DNA from: Salinivirgaceae bacterium
GTDB lineage: Bacteria > Bacteroidota > Bacteroidia > Bacteroidales > SZUA-534
Reading direction: 5' to 3'
Length of the DNA: 64,000 nt
NCBI GenBank assembly: GCA_024405635.1
Contig: JAKSOL010000007.1
Location: 40,755 to 104,754 of the forward strand
Shown in pieces: positions 30,441-48,045 of this stretch (within the stretch, counting starts at the first letter, position 1; each line of letters starts with the position of its first letter). The position numbers and the translations under genes were made by a program. The notes under the pieces were generated by a model that was not told where the DNA came from, did not search any database, and saw only the letters and a list, made by a program, of their open reading frames with translations.

Positions 30441-30639
30441 AGCTAAATCTTTTTATAATCAATAATTTAAGTTTTCCTCAAATGAGACCGCAAATATAGA
30501 GATTGAATAATGAACTCAAAACAAAAACTCAAAAAAAAAATCTTAAAATTTTCACTATTAAATGGATGCGTTTTTGCCTTATATATTATTGCGTAAATAT
30601 GGTTTTTATGAGGTGTTGTGTGTGTTTTATATTGCTTAA

Positions 30640-38918: not shown

Positions 38919-39042
38919 TGTATATACTTTTTTTGAAAAACAGTGCCAAATGTATAAAAAACCTTACTTGCACAAAAATAATACGCGGGACTTTTTAGAT
39001 AGCTGAGGATGCTGAGTCAAATAACAAGAACGAAAGTGTTAC

Positions 39043-39077
39043 GTATTATATAATGCTCAATCTAAGACAAGTAAAAC
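39043..39077. repeat. repeat copy 1 (most degenerate, 31/35)
   Basis: GTATTATATAATGCTCAATCTAAGACAAGTAAAAC. Confidence 0.8.
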
Positions 39078-39253
39078 CATATCTACTCTTATCAACGGAA
39101 ATGGACTAAAATGATGTGGAATGTCTACTTTTGTAAAACTAAAACGCAGAAAAACAACGCCGATGTCTACTTCGGTAAATTATTAATTCAATAAAAAATT
39201 TTCTGTGTCTACTTTTTTGAGCTGGTACAAATTTTTTGGTCCAATGTTTTCAT

Positions 39254-39367
39254 TACCGTCATTTTGATATCAATTTTCGAAAAAAGTTACTGTCATTTTG
39301 AGTAGATTTTCCAATATTTTTACCGTCATTTTGAAACTAAATCATAATATTTGTACCGTCATTTTGA
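39254..39367 (+). repeat. four iteron-like copies of TAC(C/T)GTCATTTTGA at 33-34 bp spacing
   Basis: Copies start at 39254, 39288, 39321 and 39354. The last ends 19 bp before the ATG of the DUF4143 ATPase gene. Confidence 0.7.
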
Positions 39368-39385
39368 GCTCAATACTTATTTATC

Positions 39386-40732
39386 ATGGCCGAAATATAT
39401 CAAAGAGAGGCATTGCAAAGCCTCAGGGAATGGAAGGAAAAGGCTGAACGCAAACCACTTATATTAAGAGGTCCGCGTCAGGTTGGGAAAACTACACTCG
39501 TGGATATTTTCTCAAAGGATTTTGAATCGTACGTTTACCTAAACCTTGAAATCGAGGAAAACGCAAAACTATTCGATACGAGCAAAAACATAAACGAGCT
39601 AATAACCTCGATATTTTTCATTGGCGGGCAAAAGATCAACAAGACAAGCAGCCTACTTTTCATCGACGAGATACAGAACTCGGCACAGGCTGTTATGATG
39701 CTGAGATATTTCTACGAGCAGGCTCCATGGCTTTATGTAATATCAGCAGGCTCACTATTGGAAAACCTTGAAAAAAGGAATATCTCATTCCCTGTGGGCA
39801 GAGTGGAATATATGGCTTTGCGTCCATTCTCGTTCAAGGAATATGCGTGGGCAAATCTAGGCGAGGATGTCTACAACGCCATCAACTCCGTATCCATACC
39901 AGAGGCTTATCACAGCAAGCTGATAAAGGAATTCAACACATACACATTGATAGGCGGCATGCCAGAAGTGGTATCCAACTTCATAAAATACAAAGATATT
40001 CTGAAACTGAACGAGATATACGACACCCTGCTGACCGCGTATCGTGATGACATAGAGAAATACGCTCCAAGAGAGAGCATAACCAAGGCAATGCGTTACA
40101 TAATGGAACACGGTTTCCCATACGCGTCGCAGGAAATAGTATTGGGAGGCTTTGCAGGATCGGCTTACAAGTCAAGGGAAATCGGAGAGGCATTCTCGCT
40201 GCTATCAAAATCGATGCTAACAGAACTTGTGTATCCATCCACGTCAACCGAGATACCGGCTCCTCCAGATATGAAGCGCAGACCCAAACTAATGTGGCTC
40301 GATACAGGAATAGTAAACTACGCCTCTGGCCTTAGGAAAGAGATACTTGGCGCCAATGATATTCTCGACGTTTACAAAGGTAAGATTGCGGAACACATTG
40401 TAGGCCAGGAAATAATATCGACCGACAGCAGATGCTCTTTCCGAAGAAGCTACTGGGTAAGAAACAAACAAGGCTCTGACGCAGAAATGGATTTCACCTT
40501 ACAGAAAGACAACAAGATGATCCCAATAGAAGTAAAAGCAGGAACCAACGCACACTTAAAATCGCTTCACATCTATATGGAAGAATCAGATCAGAATGTA
40601 GCCATCAGAATTTGGTCGAACCCGATGCAAATAGATGACATAAAAACTCCGAAAGGCAAAACTTTCAAACTGATTAACCTGCCTTTCTACTATGTGAGCA
40701 AGATAAACGAGATTTTGGAAAAGGAGATATAA
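39386..40732 (+). CDS. AAA+ ATPase with DUF4143-type C-terminal domain
   Basis: 448 aa with Walker A GPRQVGKTT and Walker B LLFIDEIQ. Its length and architecture are typical of COG1373-like ATPases. It lies between the two degenerate repeats. Confidence 0.8.
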   Translation: MAEIYQREALQSLREWKEKAERKPLILRGPRQVGKTTLVDIFSKDFESYVYLNLEIEENAKLFDTSKNINELITSIFFIGGQKINKTSSLLFIDEIQNSAQAVMMLRYFYEQAPWLYVISAGSLLENLEKRNISFPVGRVEYMALRPFSFKEYAWANLGEDVYNAINSVSIPEAYHSKLIKEFNTYTLIGGMPEVVSNFIKYKDILKLNEIYDTLLTAYRDDIEKYAPRESITKAMRYIMEHGFPYASQEIVLGGFAGSAYKSREIGEAFSLLSKSMLTELVYPSTSTEIPAPPDMKRRPKLMWLDTGIVNYASGLRKEILGANDILDVYKGKIAEHIVGQEIISTDSRCSFRRSYWVRNKQGSDAEMDFTLQKDNKMIPIEVKAGTNAHLKSLHIYMEESDQNVAIRIWSNPMQIDDIKTPKGKTFKLINLPFYYVSKINEILEKEI

Positions 40733-40951
40733 GAAAAAAATCGGAGTTTTAGCGGAATCTATCTAAAAAGGGCACATTCCGCTAAAACTCCGAAAGGCAA
40801 ATTTTTAATTATTTATCTGATATTGTGAAAATTAGGCTATGTTCTCAGCAAAATGAGGTAGGGCGTTTTTAGGGATTTTAGGGGAAGTTCGAAAAGGTGA
40901 ATAACCTGCCTTTCTGGTATACGAGCAAGATTTATGTATCGTGATACATAA

Positions 40952-40986
40952 GTTTTACATAATGCTCAATCTAAGACAAGTAAAAC
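40952..40986. repeat. repeat copy 2 (33/35, shares the AATCTAAG variant with copy 1)
   Basis: GTTTTACATAATGCTCAATCTAAGACAAGTAAAAC. Confidence 0.95.
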
Positions 40987-41220
40987 ATAAGCCATACCCA
41001 AATCGCCTTCGTCGATTATTATATTTTTCAATTGTTCGCCTGTAATACGACGTGTTTGCAAAGTTTCCCAACCAAACGGCAGTGTGCCGTCGTTGTTGGC
41101 TTGAATGTAGTTCACAGCCTTAACATTAAGATCAGTTCTTGTTTCTGCTTCGATACAGAAGTAAACATTTTCGTCGCCTTTTATACGAAAAAAATGTCGT
41201 TGAATGTCTATTAGTTTCAT
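40966..41220 (-). CDS. hypothetical protein; last codons and stop are supplied by repeat copy 2
   Basis: 84-aa ORF. The C-terminal VLLVLD* is encoded by the reverse complement of the repeat, so the native 3' end is probably missing. Confidence 0.35.
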   Translation of the reverse strand: MKLIDIQRHFFRIKGDENVYFCIEAETRTDLNVKAVNYIQANNDGTLPFGWETLQTRRITGEQLKNIIIDEGDLGMAYVLLVLD

Positions 41221-41440
41221 AATTCTTGTTTTTATGTATTGTTTAGTTAGTTATTTGTTTATTTTTGCATCGAGTTCAGCGTCTTTATCGCTAAACAATG
41301 AATTGGCTTCCAACAGCGAGAGCAATTGTAGCTCTCCCATCGCGGATAGCCAATTTTTAATTTTACGACTATCGTAATACCACACATTGTTAGTAGCAAT
41401 AGATTGCTCTATTTTAGTACATATTTTATTGTCATTTTGA

Positions 41441-41475
41441 GTTTTACATAATGCTCAAACTCAGACAAGTAAAAC
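41441..41475. repeat. repeat copy 3 (consensus)
   Basis: Exact 35-mer. Confidence 0.95.
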
Positions 41476-41531
41476 TAATACAGAACAAGTACAACGAACT
41501 TGTTAACCGCATGCAGGCGGTGGTCTTTTAG
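41476..41531 (+). pseudogene. 3'-terminal fragment (last ~17 codons) of a HicB-like gene
   Basis: Encodes IQNKYNELVNRMQAVVF*, near-identical to the C-terminus of 43913..44308. It starts exactly at the repeat boundary. Confidence 0.8.
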
Positions 41532-41610
41532 GACTTAATCAACATTAAGGCGGTGCTGCATTCACCGCTTTTTTTTTGCTTTTAAAAAAAATTTTGTAAT
41601 TTTGTAGTGC

Positions 41611-41697
41611 TTTATAAGCATCCCTGGACTCGCTCCGAGATTGGGTTTGTGTCGAAAGGCTCATACCACCAAAGCCTAACAGTGTTAGGCTTTTTTT
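41611..41697 (+). ncRNA. candidate structured small RNA, copy A
   Basis: Upstream lie TTTG (41575-41578), an 18-nt spacer and TAATTTTG (41597-41604), which fit the Bacteroidetes -33/-7 promoter. The body contains a GAAA-tetraloop hairpin. It ends in the terminator AAAGCCTAAC-AGT-GTTAGGCTTTTTTT (41671-41697). A diverged homologous copy lies at 43741-43832 on the minus strand. Confidence 0.45.
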
Positions 41698-41927
41698 GTT
41701 AATGACGAGTTTGTTTTGATGACATTATAGCCGTCGTCAAAGTAATAATATACCTTTATTTTATCTATATGCCACAAATTGTACAATGCGTTGATAGCCT
41801 TATCTGTATCAATACCTCTTTCTAAGCATTGCAACACGATTTCAGCCTTTTGATGATTTATGGCATAACGTGCTTTTTTTTCAATATTACCAGTTCCTTT
41901 GGTTTGTTTCAAATCTGCTGGAATGCC
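41685..41927 (-). pseudogene. 3' half of a gene homologous to 43235..43734, truncated at the repeat
   Basis: The reading frame GIPADLKQTKGTGNIEKKARYA... runs right up to repeat copy 4. It aligns with ...DGIPADLKQTKGTGNIEKYARYA... of the longer copy. Confidence 0.8.
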
Positions 41928-41962
41928 GTTTTACATAATGCTCAAACTCAGACAAGTAAAAC
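41928..41962. repeat. repeat copy 4 (consensus)
   Basis: Exact 35-mer. Confidence 0.95.
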
Positions 41963-42374
41963 TTACAATACCCTTTACAGTGATGTTTTTTATGGTTGCA
42001 CCGCTCGAATACCCGAATAATCCGATACTGCGTGTTTCAGCCGAACTGTCAGCAACATTCATATTCGAAATGGTGTGGTTGTTGCCGTCAAAAACACCTT
42101 TAAACGGATTCCTTGCCTCGCCAATGCTAAACCACGGTTGATTGTTCAGGTCGATGTCCGCAATAAGTTTATAGTGCAAAGTATCAAATCCCTGTGTTCC
42201 GGCACTAACAACATACGACATAAACGCCAGTTCGTTAGCGGTTCCAATAATATATGGCGACTCTTTGCTGCCATCACCTTCTGTGAATTCTTCCATGGCG
42301 CCTTCCCATGCGTCTGCCGCATGAGTGTTAATCACCGCCAACACCATGACGATGCTAATGAATGTAATCTTTCT
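41963..42374 (-). pseudogene. internal fragment of a secreted GLUG-motif-type surface protein gene, truncated at both repeat boundaries
   Basis: The minus-strand frame begins mid-signal-peptide (RKITFISIVMVLAVINTHAADA) directly after a stop contributed by the repeat. It contains PFKGVFDGNNHTISNMNV and IGLFGYSSGATIKNITVKG and ends after about 137 codons inside repeat copy 4. Confidence 0.7.
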
Positions 42375-42409
42375 GTTTTACATAATGCTCAAACTCAGAC
42401 AAGTAAAAC
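42375..42409. repeat. repeat copy 5 (consensus)
   Basis: Exact 35-mer. Confidence 0.95.
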
Positions 42410-42604
42410 TTTTAGATGTTTCAAATCGGAGGGCGAGAATTTGCCCACCTCCGCCTTGTAAGTAACACGTGTTATTTTGCCGTTCTTTACGTAAAAAGAA
42501 ACTTTTACTACATTGCCGTTCTTTACAGCGTGAACGTGAATGGGTTTGTGTTCGCCAGAATAGAACAAAATTTTTATTCCAAGATATTCGTATATTACAG
42601 GCAT
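42395..42604 (-). CDS. DUF4160 family protein, 3' end replaced by repeat sequence
   Basis: MPVIYEYLGIKILFYSGEHKPIHVHA is typical of DUF4160. The terminal VLLV* is encoded by repeat copy 5. Confidence 0.75.
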   Translation of the reverse strand: MPVIYEYLGIKILFYSGEHKPIHVHAVKNGNVVKVSFYVKNGKITRVTYKAEVGKFSPSDLKHLKVLLV

Positions 42605-42676
42605 AAATTAAAACTCCTTATAATGATTATTTGTAATTCCCACGAAAGGCTTACTACTACTAAACGTTGCACAACA

Positions 42677-42943
42677 ATGTGCATTAACAAGATTATTGCC
42701 GATTGTAAAGCATTTAAGATTGGCAAAACTGGCGACCCTCAAAGCAGGGCGGCCAATTATGGCGATTTTGACAAAATGTATCTTTTGGTTCAAAGCAAAA
42801 ATTCGCTTCTGATTGATAGGCTTGAAGGCTACTATACCCAAAAGTATTACGGCCATAAAAAAAATATGAATATAAACAGAGGTTCTGCGGCTGTTATGGC
42901 TTCTTCTCATAGGACTTACTATTTATATATTGTTGTCAAATAG
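42677..42943 (+). CDS. hypothetical protein (88 aa)
   Basis: The start is taken at ATG 42677 (MCINKIIADCKAFKIGKTGDPQSR...). The upstream part of track ORF 42416..42943 is antisense to the DUF4160 gene. No family was recognised with confidence. Confidence 0.35.
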   Translation: MCINKIIADCKAFKIGKTGDPQSRAANYGDFDKMYLLVQSKNSLLIDRLEGYYTQKYYGHKKNMNINRGSAAVMASSHRTYYLYIVVK

Positions 42944-43192
42944 GCCATTATACATACTTAACGGATTTATGTCTGCTCCGTTGTCCCAAGTAACAATGCC
43001 GTCAACTACGCCAACTTTGGCAAATAATTCTTTGTCGATTAAGGCCTTAAAAACTGGGAAATAGCCTTTTTGTATGTTGTTTTTTAGATAGCATATTTTT
43101 TCTGTGCCATCATAAAATTGCACTTGTAAGGCATATTCGTCTATGTTATATACTTTAACCGACTTCACATCAAAAAAGGCTTTTTCCTTCAT
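42923..43192 (-). CDS. DUF2442 family protein
   Basis: 89 aa. The segment ...YALQVQFYDGTEKICYL...VDGIVTWDNGADINPLSMY is typical of DUF2442. The start codon lies only 7 nt from repeat copy 6. Confidence 0.8.
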   Translation of the reverse strand: MKEKAFFDVKSVKVYNIDEYALQVQFYDGTEKICYLKNNIQKGYFPVFKALIDKELFAKVGVVDGIVTWDNGADINPLSMYNGLFDNNI

Positions 43193-43199
43193 TGTTTTG

Positions 43200-43234
43200 G
43201 TTTTACATAATGCTCAAACTCAGACAAGTAAAAC
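43200..43234. repeat. repeat copy 6 (consensus)
   Basis: Exact 35-mer. Confidence 0.95.
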
Positions 43235-43734
43235 ACGATATTAGCAATATTAGTGAGTTGGCTGAAAATCGTGCAGAGTTCATGGCGTATGCGACAAATC
43301 CTGATTATACATCTACGTTCGACACTGGCAGCGGTGGTTTCTTGGCTAAACATAACTCACGAATACCTAACGACTCAACGTCAAAGAACGATATAGAGAA
43401 GTATGAGAAAGAAATAAGAATGTGCGATGTATTCGTAAAGGCTGGGCACAAGATTGTTTACAAAGAAGATGTCCAAGGGGAGTATGATGTGTTATTTGAC
43501 GGAATTCCAGCAGATTTGAAACAAACCAAAGGAACTGGTAATATCGAGAAATACGCAAGGTACGCCGTGAAGAGTCAGAAAGCAAAAATGGTGCTTTTTT
43601 GTTTGGAAAAGGACATAAATAGAAACAAAGCGGAGGAGGCACTAAGAGCGTTGTATATAGTAGATAAAATCAAAGTGTTGTATTATTATGAGGACAATAC
43701 GAATGTTGTTTTGTCTAATAAATCACTTCTATAA
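43235..43734 (+). CDS. hypothetical protein with possible PD-(D/E)xK-like motif (polymorphic-toxin / polyvalent-protein style)
   Basis: The frame is open from repeat copy 6, and the first internal ATG is at 43282 (MAYATNPDY...). The motif EYDVLFDGIPADLKQTKG suggests a D...D-x-K nuclease. The family assignment is tentative. Confidence 0.4.
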
Positions 43735-43740
43735 AATAGA

Positions 43741-43832
43741 AAAGCCCAACAATAACATTGTCAGGCTTTTAGTGGTACGAGTCTTTCGACACGTACCCTA
43801 TCTCGGGGCTAACCCAGGGACTGCCATTTAAG
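43741..43832 (-). ncRNA. candidate structured small RNA, copy B
   Basis: The reverse strand carries TTTG (43865-43868), an 18-nt spacer and TAATTTTG (43839-43846), the same promoter geometry as copy A. It has a 10-bp stem with a GAAA loop and a terminator hairpin (43741-43770) shared with the convergent gene. Confidence 0.45.
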
Positions 43833-43912
43833 ACACTACAAAATTACAAAATTTTTTATAAAAGCAAAAGAAAAAGCGGTGAATGCAGCACCGCCTTAAT
43901 GTTGATTAAGTC

Positions 43913-44308
43913 CTAAAAGACCACCGCCTGCATGCGGTTTACAAGTTCGTTGTACTTGTTCTGTATTATTGCTTTCTGCTTGTCCGATACTGGTACAAGT
44001 TTACGTTTGTATTTGCGCATCATTGCTGCGTTTAGACCTATTTCCTTGGCGAATGCTGTGGCGTTGATAAATGGAAATTGCTCAAAGAACCCAGATATGT
44101 CGTACACGTATTCTACTGCGATATTGTCACTATACCAATCTGGGTATTTCCCTGTTTGTTCCATGTGGTATTTGGCTTGCTCAACCATAACTTCCTCGAA
44201 GCATGTTTTAGCCTCTTGTTCTGTCATGCCACTGCCGTACACGCCTTGCGCATCGTTGGTGTAAATAGCAAAACCTCCGTCTGCGCCCCTCTCAATAACT
44301 GCTTTCAT
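43913..44308 (-). CDS. HicB-like antitoxin family protein (no hicA partner present)
   Basis: 131 aa. The N-terminus MKAVIERGADGGFAIYTNDAQGVYGSGMTEQEAKTCFEE is typical of the HicB/UPF0150 fold, and the C-terminal region is HTH-like. Confidence 0.6.
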   Translation of the reverse strand: MKAVIERGADGGFAIYTNDAQGVYGSGMTEQEAKTCFEEVMVEQAKYHMEQTGKYPDWYSDNIAVEYVYDISGFFEQFPFINATAFAKEIGLNAAMMRKYKRKLVPVSDKQKAIIQNKYNELVNRMQAVVF

Positions 44309-44393
44309 GTTCGTTTAGTTTTATCATTGTTCTTTAAAAAAAAAGTTGAACTGCCCCCCACTAAGGGGAGCAGCGTTCTACTTTAGTCCTGCG

Positions 44394-44428
44394 GTTTTAC
44401 ATAATGCTCAAACTCAGACAAGTAAAAC
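44394..44428. repeat. repeat copy 7 (consensus)
   Basis: Exact 35-mer. Confidence 0.95.
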
Positions 44429-45293
44429 GGCTAACGCTTTTTCAAAGGCAATTACCGAGCGCGAAGTCCGCAAAACCGACAAGTATGCTGCCGAGATTAA
44501 CGCCATTAAAGGCAAGTTGCTCGACTTTATCAACAAAGGCGCTGAAATTAAAGATTCGCACTTTGACAAATACAACGATATTGCTAACAAACAAGTGTTG
44601 CACCCATTTGTAAAAATTGTGCGTGCTTACATTAAGATTAACGGCAAAGAAAACGTTAAAAAGCAAGCCAACACCATTTGCACCAACATTGCAAATCTTT
44701 GCAAAGTATTGCCAGCCGATTTTGAATTTATGGCACAACTTAAAGCAATTGAAAAAAGCTTAAACAACTACATTGAGGGCAAAACAGCAACGCCTAAAAT
44801 GTTGCAAACCGAATTAAGCGGTTTAGGTCGCATTGCCGATAACGACGAAGATGCAAGCACTGCATATTTAGTTACTCTATCAAGAAAAGAAGTGTACGAA
44901 GATGGTTACAGAGATAGTGAAACATTGCTAAAATCTAACGACTACAATGCCGCTATTGCATTTTTTAATGACAAGAAAAAGCAATTGCAAAATATGGCAG
45001 AAGATGATGTTTGCGATTATGATTTAACTATGTGGGTAGGCGACTATGAGGATATTGTAGAAGAAGAATTTGCAGATTTTATAGGAGAACCAACCGATGG
45101 TTATGCGGTTTTAATTAAAGACAGCCATGGTTACTTAATAGAAAATGGCGATGGAAAAACCGAAAGGGATTTTGTGCTCGAAGATTGTAAGGTAAAATTA
45201 GTTAAGAAAGACGAATTAACAGACGAAATACAAATTAGTTTTGGATTTCCAAAACGATGGGTAAAATTAGGTTTAATACCTTCAAGATTATAA
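44429..45293 (+). pseudogene. 5'-truncated ORF of unknown function (mobile-element-like)
   Basis: The frame is open from repeat copy 7 for 100 codons before the first ATG. Track ORF 44346..45293 reads through the repeat (VLHNAQTQTSKT). It shares a YI-x-x-x-TATP motif with the N-terminal part of 45929..46789. Confidence 0.55.
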
Positions 45294-45309
45294 GATATAA
45301 CTAACAACA

Positions 45310-45340
45310 AAAAAGCCGCGCTTAAAGGCGTGGCTTTTTT
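45310..45340 (+). terminator. rho-independent terminator
   Basis: AAAAAGCCGCGC-TTAAA-GGCGTGGCTTTTTT. Confidence 0.7.
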
Positions 45341-45426
45341 ACTTTGACAAGGCAAAGTACCTTGATGGCGCAGGGGCGTTAATCAATATTTCAGCCTAAC
45401 GACAACGTCCGAAACGTATTCCCTGA

Positions 45427-45948
45427 TTGTCCGATGCAAGTATAAGGAAAAAATATATACACAAACAAGATATGCGAGAAAAAATAATAGAATATATCAA
45501 AAAGGCGTGGAACGGCGAAAAATGCAGCAGATTGCTGGATATAACCAGTGCAATTGACATACAAGCACTGGAAGTTGCAAATAGTATAATTGATAAATTA
45601 AACGAAATACAAGATAGAGAAAAATACGACCACATTAAAAAAGTTAAAATATATGCAGTCGATTTTGATCACACAAAAGAAAGACATTTTGGTGCAAATG
45701 AAACAAGGACAGACCAAATACCTTTAACATTTGATGATATACCTTTGTTAGTCGATACTTTATTGTCGCCGCAATTGGTAAGATTAGGAACATTACGCCA
45801 AGATACAGGAGCAGGAATACACTTTATTAGCCAGTTGGATAATGGTAAAATGATTTGCGTACTAATAAAAGTTAAGCCGCAAAAAGAAACTTATAAAAAT
45901 AGAACAATATATAAAAAGAAATTAAAAGATGGAAGCAAGAATAGTTGA
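45427..45948 (+). CDS. PBECR-like (Barnase/EndoU/ColicinE5-RelE-like) nuclease domain protein
   Basis: The motif DFDHTKERHFGANETRTDQIPLTFDDIPLLVDTLLSP resembles the H-x3-RH ... pit-x-eDi pattern of polyvalent-protein nuclease domains. The likely start is ATG 45472. Confidence 0.45.
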   Translation: MSDASIRKKYIHKQDMREKIIEYIKKAWNGEKCSRLLDITSAIDIQALEVANSIIDKLNEIQDREKYDHIKKVKIYAVDFDHTKERHFGANETRTDQIPLTFDDIPLLVDTLLSPQLVRLGTLRQDTGAGIHFISQLDNGKMICVLIKVKPQKETYKNRTIYKKKLKDGSKNS

Positions 45949-46789
45949 TTTTTATATGGTAGAAAACACCAATAAGGACAAACGCCTACGCTTAATGAAA
46001 ATGAAAGCGCTTGCACTGGCTGAACCGCTTGACGGTTTAGCCACAACCAAGTGTGCTAACAATCAACCTGCCGATATTGTTAATCGATATTTGGATTTAC
46101 TCGATAAGCCAACACGCGCCGCCGCAATGGGCGTTTTGTCGTCGGTTGAGCGCTTTATTGAGCAAGCCGATAATAATTACCCTTATATGGCTGAATTTGC
46201 GGCTATGGCTGTAAGTTTGAGCGATTATATTAACGAAGAAACGGCAACACCACAAATTGCAGCCATCGACCTTAATAACATTCATAAAATATCAGGCGTT
46301 AATGTTGATAATAGCGAATTAAAAGGCATTGTAAGTAGTAAAACGCTGCTTGCTCATCAGTTTGAGCCGCTGAACTTTGGTGGTAAGTGGAAACTGTTAT
46401 TTGGTCGCCCAACCGCGCCTTTTAAGGTAATGGTACACGGAGCGCCCGGAAATGGCAAATCAACTTTTGCTATACAATTCGCTAAATACCTTGCCAGCAG
46501 CCACAAGTTGCGTGTATTGTATATTGCTAATGAAGAGAGTTTTACATACACCTTTCAGGAGAAACTTATGCGCCTGAACGCAATAGACGACAACCTGAAA
46601 ATAGCCGATTCGCTACCTGATAACTTTGACGATTATGATGTAGCGTTTTTCGATTCAGTAAACACAATGAAACTCGATATTGACGATTTACGACGAATAT
46701 TCAAACAAAACGACAAAACTTCGTTTGTGTTGATTTTTCAAAACAACAAGAAAGGTCAATTTAGGGGTTCGCTTGAGTGTTTTACATAA
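45929..46789 (+). CDS. RecA-like/AAA ATPase (phage or plasmid type), 3' end cut by repeat
   Basis: Walker A is HGAPGNGKST and Walker B-like is YDVAFFDS. The ORF ends ...GSLECFT* with the last codons and the stop inside repeat copy 8. Confidence 0.55.
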   Translation: MEARIVDFYMVENTNKDKRLRLMKMKALALAEPLDGLATTKCANNQPADIVNRYLDLLDKPTRAAAMGVLSSVERFIEQADNNYPYMAEFAAMAVSLSDYINEETATPQIAAIDLNNIHKISGVNVDNSELKGIVSSKTLLAHQFEPLNFGGKWKLLFGRPTAPFKVMVHGAPGNGKSTFAIQFAKYLASSHKLRVLYIANEESFTYTFQEKLMRLNAIDDNLKIADSLPDNFDDYDVAFFDSVNTMKLDIDDLRRIFKQNDKTSFVLIFQNNKKGQFRGSLECFT

Positions 46790-46813
46790 TGCTCAAACTC
46801 AGACAAGTAAAAC
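46779..46813. repeat. repeat copy 8 (consensus, cas2-proximal)
   Basis: Exact 35-mer, 50 bp from the cas2 stop codon. Confidence 0.95.
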
Positions 46814-46863
46814 AGACTATTGGCTAATTTATTGAATAAGAGTATACTATCATTGGTTTGCTG

Positions 46864-47184
46864 TTAAAAAAAATCAATCAAATCGGGCTTTTTTAGCAAA
46901 ATCTCGTCATTTTTTCGTTTCTGTTTTCGTCCAAAATAATGGTAAGAAGCTTCGTTGTGTTTGTCATCTACCACTACTACACTTATTTGGCATTTGCCGC
47001 AAATAGCTTCCATTATTCGCTTTTTATGAACTAATGCGTTGGCCATAGAGTAACAATACCGTATATATAGATTGGAGTATAACTTATTGAATCCGTCCTT
47101 CTCTAGTTGACGCGAAAAATTCTTTTTACATTCCTTGCCTGTTGATGTGCGGTTGGAAATGTTCATAAAAACGTAAATCCACAT
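46864..47184 (-). CDS. cas2: CRISPR-associated endoribonuclease Cas2 (type II-like)
   Basis: 106 aa. MWIYVF.N...........F...L.KDGF......LY.RYC aligns with my recollection of type II-C Cas2. It lies immediately downstream of cas1 (3-nt gap). Confidence 0.8.
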   Translation of the reverse strand: MWIYVFMNISNRTSTGKECKKNFSRQLEKDGFNKLYSNLYIRYCYSMANALVHKKRIMEAICGKCQISVVVVDDKHNEASYHYFGRKQKRKNDEILLKKPDLIDFF

Positions 47185-47187
47185 AAC

Positions 47188-48045
47188 TTAAAACAATGAA
47201 GGGTAATATATTACACGTCGCTCACCTAAGTAAATCTGCGATAGCGAATAAGTTGTTTGTGACACATCGTCGGGTTTTATTGACTCGTAGAATAGCTCCA
47301 AAATGGCTTTTTTGAAGTTGTGGTCAATGCATCTTTGGCCGATGGTGTATAGTTCAAGCACTTTTTCGTCAACAAATGGTCGATATGGTTCCATAACATC
47401 GTCGCTCAACGGAAAGGAGTTGTATCGGTTTTTATGAAAAACACCAATCATTGGCAATAAACCTGAATTCATTAGCGCACGCGATACTACCGACCGCAAA
47501 ATGGCATATCCGTAGTTTAGCATATCGTTGGGACAATTGCCGTAACGGTCGCGTATAAAATCTTTGCCTAGCAAAAGTTTCCAATATGTTGCGGCTGCCA
47601 AAGCCTCGCGATTTGTTGTGTCGCCACTTTTAACATTCTTATGGTACTTGCTCAACACATCTTCTCCCTTGCCCAATTTTTGTAGCAATAGCGACTGGTT
47701 GTGTATCTTATGTTCTATTATCTGTTTCCAGATTTGTTTTCTAACGGGTTCTGTTGTCGCTAACTGCGCGTTAAAGGTCATTGTTTGCCGTACGTTTGAC
47801 TCTAAGTCTAAAGTCATGCTTACGGGCATGTGGCGCTCGTCGCAAAAAACTATGCTTATGTTGTTTTGAGACAACTTGTTAAGCAGTGGCACAGTGATGC
47901 GTACCGAATGGTTATCGACTAAAATACCCGACACGTCCTCTAACGAACGCATGATTGGGTCTTTATCTTCTTGACAAATTAAAAGCTGCCCATCTTTCAA
48001 CGATAGATCGGCTTTGTTTTCAAATACAAGTGTTTGTTTTGGCAT
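47188..48045 (-). CDS. cas1: CRISPR-associated endonuclease Cas1 (type II subtype)
   Basis: 285 aa, collinear with type II Cas1: IVFCDERHMP, NREALAAATYW, LNYGYAILRS, GVFHKNRYNSFPLSDDVMEPYRPFVD. The catalytic E, H and D/E positions are retained. Confidence 0.9.
   Translation of the reverse strand: MPKQTLVFENKADLSLKDGQLLICQEDKDPIMRSLEDVSGILVDNHSVRITVPLLNKLSQNNISIVFCDERHMPVSMTLDLESNVRQTMTFNAQLATTEPVRKQIWKQIIEHKIHNQSLLLQKLGKGEDVLSKYHKNVKSGDTTNREALAAATYWKLLLGKDFIRDRYGNCPNDMLNYGYAILRSVVSRALMNSGLLPMIGVFHKNRYNSFPLSDDVMEPYRPFVDEKVLELYTIGQRCIDHNFKKAILELFYESIKPDDVSQTTYSLSQIYLGERRVIYYPSLF

Follow-up and report, generated by a model that had tools for sequence, protein, structure and literature searches.

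A putative structured small-RNA partner of a PD-(D/E)xK toxin domain in Mu-like Bacteroidales phages, carried twice in a gene-bearing repeat array

The 64,000-nt stretch of a Salinivirgaceae genome analysed here (the window) carries, twice, a short intergenic element that resembles a small RNA (sRNA) gene and lies between a hicB gene and a toxin-like gene, which raises the questions of whether it is an RNA gene at all, to which of its neighbours it belongs, and what it might do. The original prediction was of a structured RNA with its own Bacteroidetes-type promoter, possibly an RNA antitoxin or a regulator of the mobile element it came from.

Two RNA copies within captured array segments

Both promoters were found as described: TTTG-N18-TAATTTTG, a motif match to the Bacteroidetes -33/-7 type, is present at 41575-41604 on the plus strand (copy A) and at 43839-43868 on the minus strand (copy B), and the two are identical apart from a single spacer base. 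The copy A sRNA (41604-41697, plus strand, about 89-94 nt), delimited by fold, terminator and covariance models, consists of a 5' hairpin (41607-41621), P2 (41620-41641), the hairpin P3 with its GAAA loop and a U.U mismatch (41644-41667), and a terminator (41671-41697). The copy B sRNA (43741-43839, minus strand, about 94-99 nt), delimited by fold z-score, terminator and covariance models, has P2 at 43800-43821, P3 at 43774-43797 and a terminator at 43740-43770, the U-tail of which runs into the stop codon of the toxin gene. Intrinsic terminators were detected for both RNAs, in agreement with the hairpin and U-run ends claimed earlier, and also for hicB upstream of each. Copy B folded far better than its shuffles (z = -4.4) and copy A modestly so (z = -1.9). 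The hairpin of ten positions exists in both copies, but it had been described as a 10-bp GAAA-capped stem and the U.U mismatch at position 7 had gone unmentioned. The substitutions listed between the copies (U-A to C-G, U-G to U-A, and one pair lost in copy A) were correct, and so was the GGA/UCC to GGG/CCC change in a second small stem, although this stem proved not to be conserved across the family.

No conserved reading frame was found in the RNA body, in which indels between copies A and B break every frame; this ruled out a small peptide gene and upheld the view that the element is not a protein-coding leader. Taken alone, the promoter motif was not above chance frequency within the window: the TTTG-N18-TAATTTTG pattern had 6 matches in this AT-rich sequence versus 4.7 expected, although two of the other matches lie directly upstream of real genes, an HU-like ORF (30491-30520) and a purU-like ORF (38947-38976). 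The statistics obtained from copies A and B alone were only suggestive and insufficient for an RNA fold, with an alifold column-shuffle z of -2.0 to -2.3 for the non-terminator core, and a substitution simulation giving P = 0.05 or 0.008 by choice of reference copy, a value that is biased because the structure was derived from the same two sequences. Both copies have what defines a canonical intergenic sRNA of the Bacteroidetes, namely their own sigma-ABfr promoter (TTTG ... TAnnTTTG), a Rho-independent terminator (Ryan et al. 2020, PMC7366714) and no ORF. Both are probably real sRNA genes, predicted to be transcribed independently.

Rfam 15 gave no match in the window at gathering thresholds, and over 40900-46900, with E values up to 10 allowed, nothing but noise, so the expectation that no known RNA family is involved held. 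Further copies were sought in the 2.66-Mb genome and none were found beyond the two already reported. A covariance model of the RNA (R1) scored copy A at 81.1 bits and a model of the hairpin alone (R2) scored it at 44.8 bits; R1 was then applied to 833 Bacteroidota genomes (33 of the family, 400 of the order and 400 of the phylum) and recovered only the window's two copies and two chance matches, of which one lay in coding sequence and the other was an ordinary terminator. The whole segment had no blastn match among phage and plasmid records, degenerate patterns of the hairpin and P2 had none in viral and metagenome contigs, and the promoter-plus-start pattern returned 12 metagenome loci, all unrelated. 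Literature searches found no description of the RNA family, which is uncatalogued, nor did full-text searches show an RNA described as the partner of a MuF toxin.

The surroundings of the two copies are unusual. An array of 35-bp direct repeats extends over 39043-48045 of the window, with gene-bearing 'spacers' of 0.4-2.4 kb, and adjoins a type II-C cas1 (TIGR03639, 284 bits) and cas2; Cas9 (TIGR01865) was not found in the whole 2.66-Mb genome. Two repeat copies lie outside the window, one with 1 mismatch at a contig start directly after two GNAT acetyltransferase ORFs (C8:646-680) and one with 7 mismatches near a contig end (C5:66901-66935), and could represent a second or split array locus. 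On the minus strand of another array segment (42395-43192), a DUF4160 gene (42395-42604) is paired with a DUF2442 gene (42923-43192), a combination typical of mobile elements.

Copy A lies in a segment bounded by the plus-strand repeats at 41441-41475 and 41928-41962, and copy B in one bounded by the plus-strand repeats at 43200-43234 and 44394-44428. Stretch 41476-41927 is the reverse complement of 43495-43968, and the RNA copies are part of this inverted duplication. Identity along it is a mosaic: 99% over the end of hicB, the hicB terminator and the sRNA promoter, about 80% across the RNA body, about 70% at the nucleotide level across the convergent toxin gene (60% in amino acids) and 97% in the last 60 nt, with the RNA body thus diverging together with the toxin gene. 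Such a mosaic has the appearance of two captures from related elements, and it looks as if two related phage fragments had been taken up in opposite orientation into gene-sized segments of the cas1-cas2 array, which would account for the presence of two RNA copies. In their captured fragments, copy A faces only a 75-codon stump of its partner gene and copy B a complete toxin domain without the MuF part. The repeat at 43200-43234 provides an in-frame ATG (MLKLRQVK) that reads into this complete domain (43192-43734), so the captured domain could be translated from the repeat.

The gene upstream of the RNA is a true hicB, as its relatives follow hicA. The hicB antitoxin gene upstream of copy B occupies 43913-44308 on the same (minus) strand, with its terminator at 43873-97, and the copy A side retains the final hicB codons and a terminator at 41547-41571 (41476-41571, plus strand), 99% identical to copy B. 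The position of the RNA between hicB and the toxin-like gene was described correctly, but the RNA was absent from all six hicAB homologue loci at which it was sought (64-84% identity), so its association with hicB is incidental. At L033, one of the loci described below, a RelE/ParE-like gene and an antitoxin lie upstream of the sRNA and on its strand (~2175-2625 in toxin orientation). This layout is the same as hicA-hicB-sRNA in the window, and toxin-antitoxin 'morons' therefore seem to insert repeatedly at this junction. As the route via hicB homologues was RNA-negative, relatives were then sought via the convergent gene.

The convergent toxin-domain gene and the RNAs behind its relatives

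The partner of copy B (43237-43734, plus strand) encodes what HMMER and the predicted structure identify as a complete PD-(D/E)xK toxin domain of 165 codons, 5'-truncated at the repeat 43200-43234. The partner of copy A (41685-41912, minus strand) is the 3'-terminal 75-codon fragment of such a gene, cut by the repeat at 41928, with 60% amino acid identity to the copy B gene and a 76.6-bit profile match. A word-indexed protein search with the toxin fragment (43237-43731) returned no relatives; a full HMMER scan returned about 200 representative proteins. In many of these the domain is the C-terminal tail of a protein of 400-550 aa with an N-terminal Phage_Mu_F domain; the combination of this N-terminal domain with a variable C-terminal toxin domain is present in homologues P0015, P0016 and P0020, and the homologue loci show portal-MuF synteny. 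Other homologues gave weak CdiA_C and PF18451 matches. Judged by these sequences, the toxin domain is usually the C-terminal tail of a MuF head protein of Mu-like Bacteroidales phages, which bears out the mobile-element origin proposed at the outset. A MuF head protein with a variable C-terminal toxin tail is the polymorphic-toxin architecture of temperate phages (Jamet et al. 2017, PMC5576092; Iyer et al. 2017, PMC5512222).

An AlphaFold (AF2) model of the toxin domain, built from a 9-row alignment, reached a pLDDT of 93.7, and Foldseek returned a single significant PDB match, 4G6V_A (E 1.8e-5, probability 1.00, TM 0.58/0.70), at 16% sequence identity; a PDB sequence search with the domain gave no match. 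4G6V is the CdiA-CT of B. pseudomallei 1026b, a PD-(D/E)xK tRNase that cuts the acceptor stem of tRNA-Ala (PMC9086364). D84 and K95 are invariant in the toxin-domain alignment and the motif D-x8-A(D/E)LK is kept, as read from the sequence alignment alone, and this combination would fit a PD-(D/E)xK fold. On the strength of the model, the convergent gene is a PD-(D/E)xK toxin domain, predicted to be tRNase-like and related to CdiA-CT 1026b, and the nuclease- or toxin-like neighbour of the original prediction is thereby given a fold. The toxin-domain proteins at RNA loci are 154-634 aa long and of predicted soluble nuclease type.

The closest full-length relative of the toxin, P0015 (405 aa), lies behind a Mu portal gene in four phage contigs (L026-L029). 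Immediately past its stop codon, in antisense orientation, a third RNA homologue was found (R1 37.8 bits, E 2e-10), with TTTG-N19-TACTTTTG upstream and a terminator U-run that overlaps the toxin stop codon. A fourth, with a GCAA loop, follows the toxin-domain gene in a further phage group (L046, L047; R2 40.6 bits). Only these four distinct RNAs are joined by significant covariance-model scores.

A profile search with the toxin domain in 400 genomes of the order found it in 11 other genomes, a scan of viral contigs added five more loci, and the 200-300 nt past each toxin stop codon were read on the antisense strand. A TAnnTTTG box, an RNA of 70-130 nt and a terminator abutting the stop codon recurred at L032, L033, L035, L036, L037, L042, L045 and L046/47, and the more distant L030 and L031 carried a promoter-RNA-terminator unit as well. 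The RNAs of L032, L033, L036 and L037 were missed by both R1 and R2, and the best model score of the L045 RNA was 9.3 bits (E 5.7). Because R1 and R2 failed to recover the UUCG-type RNAs, and as MAFFT gave no in-register alignment of hairpins differing in length, these five were placed in register by hand, which biases the pair counts given below. They share a 3' strand C-U-Y-N-U-A-C-C at equal distance from the stop codon, from which L032 deviates slightly; the approximate form of this motif has a chance rate of 0.08 per region and matched 4 of the 5 hand-placed RNAs and both window copies.

At L035 (1498-2050), a stand-alone 154-aa toxin domain with its convergent sRNA unit sits between xerD and pckA, outside any phage, in a genome of the window's own family; this cassette resembles a two-gene toxin/RNA pair. 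No immunity ORF was found between toxin and RNA at the loci examined, and on the toxin strand a late phage gene comes next (methyltransferase, virion-morphogenesis or tape-measure-like). L030 and L031 have an ORF of 56-60 aa after the RNA unit, which could encode a protein immunity. These two Mu-like phage contigs carry several antisense promoter-short RNA-terminator units (L030 4680-4770 and 4290-4395; L031 2740-2830) with nearly identical promoters (TTTGGTNATTAAA...TTATTTGTACTTTTGCAGTG) and unrelated RNA bodies, and the layout is thus not confined to the toxin junction. A different conserved antisense element (...UCGUCGUCUGCGGAUGGCAGCAA.AUAAAGGAAGCUCUGG...CUUCCU), shared by three genomes, was seen behind the stand-alone toxin-like genes of L038, L039 and L040; its last hairpin includes the stop codon of the toxin gene. 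Judged from its recurrence in sequence, the conserved partner of the RNA is probably the toxin-domain gene, in a specific pairing.

Hairpin P3, the RNA strand and rival readings

What is conserved family-wide is the GAAA-type hairpin and the terminator only; neither the 5' hairpin nor the small second stem is kept. P3 has six outer pairs, which begin GG.../...ACC; these are followed by a U.U mismatch and by an inner stem that a GNRA or UUCG loop closes. In the four sequences of the significant models, 94.4% of its cells were paired, and three pairs changed on both sides (C-G/U-A, G-C/A-U and C-G/G-C/U-A/U-G). Controls with slid partners gave 25-42% pairing in the same sequences, and the covariation score was reached by 3/500 partner shuffles, a control that overstates significance because the sequences are related. 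The covariation claimed for the two copies thus extends to a larger alignment. Among nine RNAs registered by hand, pairs 5, 6, 8 and 9 were canonical in 36/36 cells with 2-4 pair types each, a result matched by 0/20,000 partner shuffles; these nine-RNA numbers are generous, as the alignment was structure-guided and the sequences are related. The internal mismatch is U.U in 8/9 RNAs and G.G in one, and the inner stem varies in length and ends in a GAAA, GCAA, UUCG or longer loop. L033 and L037 have identical apical halves and outer stems that differ by compensated changes.

The strand named for the RNA agrees with these data, which point to the strand antisense to the toxin gene: G-U pairs outnumbered A.C mismatches 9 to 1 in the nine hand-registered RNAs, the GNRA and UUCG tetraloops read correctly solely on this strand, it folded better in 11/13 units, and it carried a U-run at the 3' end in 13/13.

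The best-surviving rival, which is nonetheless rather unlikely, is a cis-antisense regulator of the phage late operon, similar to OOP or sar, that would pair with the read-through late mRNA linking the MuF gene to the following head gene, set the stability of this mRNA or downstream expression, and have no antidote role. It would suit the units of L026, L036, L042 and L047, which lie inside co-directional late gene strings, and the several units with near-identical promoters in L030 and L031. However, the L035 unit accompanies a stand-alone chromosomal toxin with no late operon, the units in the window and L033 face convergent toxin-antitoxin genes and not a late gene, and plain antisense pairing needs neither a conserved mismatch, nor stable tetraloops, nor many G-U pairs.

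It is improbable that there is no RNA gene at all, and that the end of the MuF gene is marked by a terminator or insulator acting in both directions, together with an element at the mRNA or DNA level, next to a chance promoter match in AT-rich spacer DNA. This reading draws on the near-chance frequency of the promoter pattern in the window, on the ability of a hairpin to fold on either strand, on copy A, whose two strands do not differ in folding energy, and on two units that fold slightly better on the sense strand, but the TAnnTTTG box recurs at the right distance at nearly all loci despite unrelated flanks, G-U pairs are in excess over A.C, and the U-run after the terminator and the correct tetraloops are found on the antisense strand alone.

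Its place within a CRISPR-like array, shortly after hicB and in the orientation of that gene, might suggest that the RNA regulates the hicAB module or is a component of it, or that it serves the cas1-cas2 array as a guide or tracr-type RNA. This is hardly conceivable given the six hicAB homologue loci that lack the RNA, the phages that carry the RNA and neither hicAB nor array, and duplex energies with the repeat that were within the shuffle distribution on either strand (fraction as low or lower 0.06-0.50), the last of which sustains the earlier statement that it is not a tracrRNA.

Putative function and comparison with known systems

The preferred reading, held tentatively and at somewhat less than even confidence, is that of a ~90-nt structured sRNA gene of Mu-like Bacteroidales phages that would be the toxin's dedicated partner and most likely its antidote; the antidote function considered by itself is a possibility to be put slightly lower. 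I infer both the transcription of the RNA and its antidote role. The sRNA would be transcribed from its sigma-ABfr-type promoter, convergent to the toxin domain, and would end at the intrinsic terminator with its U-tail touching the toxin stop codon, and the RNA would keep the nuclease harmless in the producing cell. This might happen in one of two ways. The RNA could bind the nuclease as a pseudo-substrate hairpin, in a type III-like manner, a role with which the conservation of the mismatch, the invariance of the GG/ACC base and the 3' N-C tail would be in keeping. Alternatively, the RNA could pair with a late transcript running through its complement, which that transcript must contain where the unit lies inside the late operon (L026, L036, L042 and L047). 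For the one stand-alone sRNA tested, that of L035, no pairing was found with the start region of its own toxin, which argues against a par-type 5' interaction.

A more speculative version of the pseudo-substrate idea, which is quite unlikely to be right, would make the hairpin a mimic of the tRNA acceptor/T-arm minihelix, acting as a decoy in the toxin's active site until MuF is packaged; its sole basis is the fold match to an acceptor-stem tRNase and the general shape. Mimic-like features are a helix of about 10-12 bp that begins with G1-C and G2-C, and the single-stranded 3' tail, N-C-N-N, in which the C is invariant in 9/9 RNAs. Mimicry of one specific host tRNA was rejected: the best candidate was the acceptor stem of tRNA-Asp, at 11/12 for L026 and 10/12 for copy B, a resemblance no greater than the tRNA-versus-tRNA background.

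Convergent RNAs that share a terminator are known from type I toxin-antitoxin systems, namely par/Fst of pAD1, txpA/RatA and bsrG/SR4, where small membrane peptides act as the toxins and the overlap between the RNAs and the toxin mRNAs is extensive. The present RNA likewise runs toward the 3' end of the toxin gene, with its terminator at or overlapping that end, and is borne on mobile elements, but the toxin is a 160-aa nuclease domain, often in a protein of at least 400 aa, and the RNA overlaps its ORF by 0-5 nt and has a conserved fold. A strict type I system was rejected, as there is no small hydrophobic toxin peptide and the L035 sRNA is unpaired with the toxin start. Type III antitoxins (ToxIN, CptIN, TenpIN) consist of tandem repeats that precede the toxin gene in the same orientation and that the toxin processes. 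They share with the present case a nuclease toxin that would be neutralised by a structured RNA and a link to phages and plasmids, while here the toxin fold differs and the RNA is a single, convergent unit without tandem repeats, for which reason a strict type III system was rejected as well. Lambda OOP and P22 sar are short phage antisense RNAs with their own promoter and terminator that act purely by pairing. The present RNA is like them in being short, in having its own promoter and terminator, and in being antisense to the end of a neighbouring gene; to our knowledge, neither of them has a conserved internal-loop hairpin or a linkage to a toxin domain. By analogy, the RNA unit would work most like an RNA antitoxin or an OOP-type phage antisense RNA.

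The MuF toxin-immunity modules (PMC5576092, PMC5512222) are similar in that a toxin-tailed MuF protein lies behind the portal gene and the downstream partner locus diverges with the tail. They differ in that their partners are immunity proteins and here a convergent structured sRNA gene stands in that place, and in that the tail here has a PD-(D/E)xK fold and no listed Pfam PBECR or MuF-C match. A downstream immunity protein gene was not found; the antisense RNA terminator abuts the stop codon. The CdiA-CT(II) 1026b/CdiI pair (4G6V; PMC9086364) shares the PD-(D/E)xK fold and is the best structural match to the toxin domain (E 1.8e-5, TM 0.70), but its toxin is CDI-delivered and not carried by a phage head, and the protein that neutralises this toxin does so by covering the active site.

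The array segments of this genome are captured pieces of Mu-like phage head modules, and across the toxin-domain family as a whole a folded antisense RNA appears to be kept where an immunity gene normally sits, a pattern that covers Mu-like Bacteroidales phages and a stand-alone copy on at least one chromosome. Protein immunity genes are the presumed counterparts of polymorphic toxins, those of the MuF family in phage heads included. If the tRNA-mimic idea were true, a nuclease toxin would be restrained by a substrate decoy instead of a protein, and the RNA would be an immunity factor for a phage-delivered polymorphic toxin. Neutralisation of the toxin by the RNA, if it occurs by whichever route, would extend RNA antitoxins to phage-injected effectors, in the form of a compact toxin/RNA pair that is directly testable.
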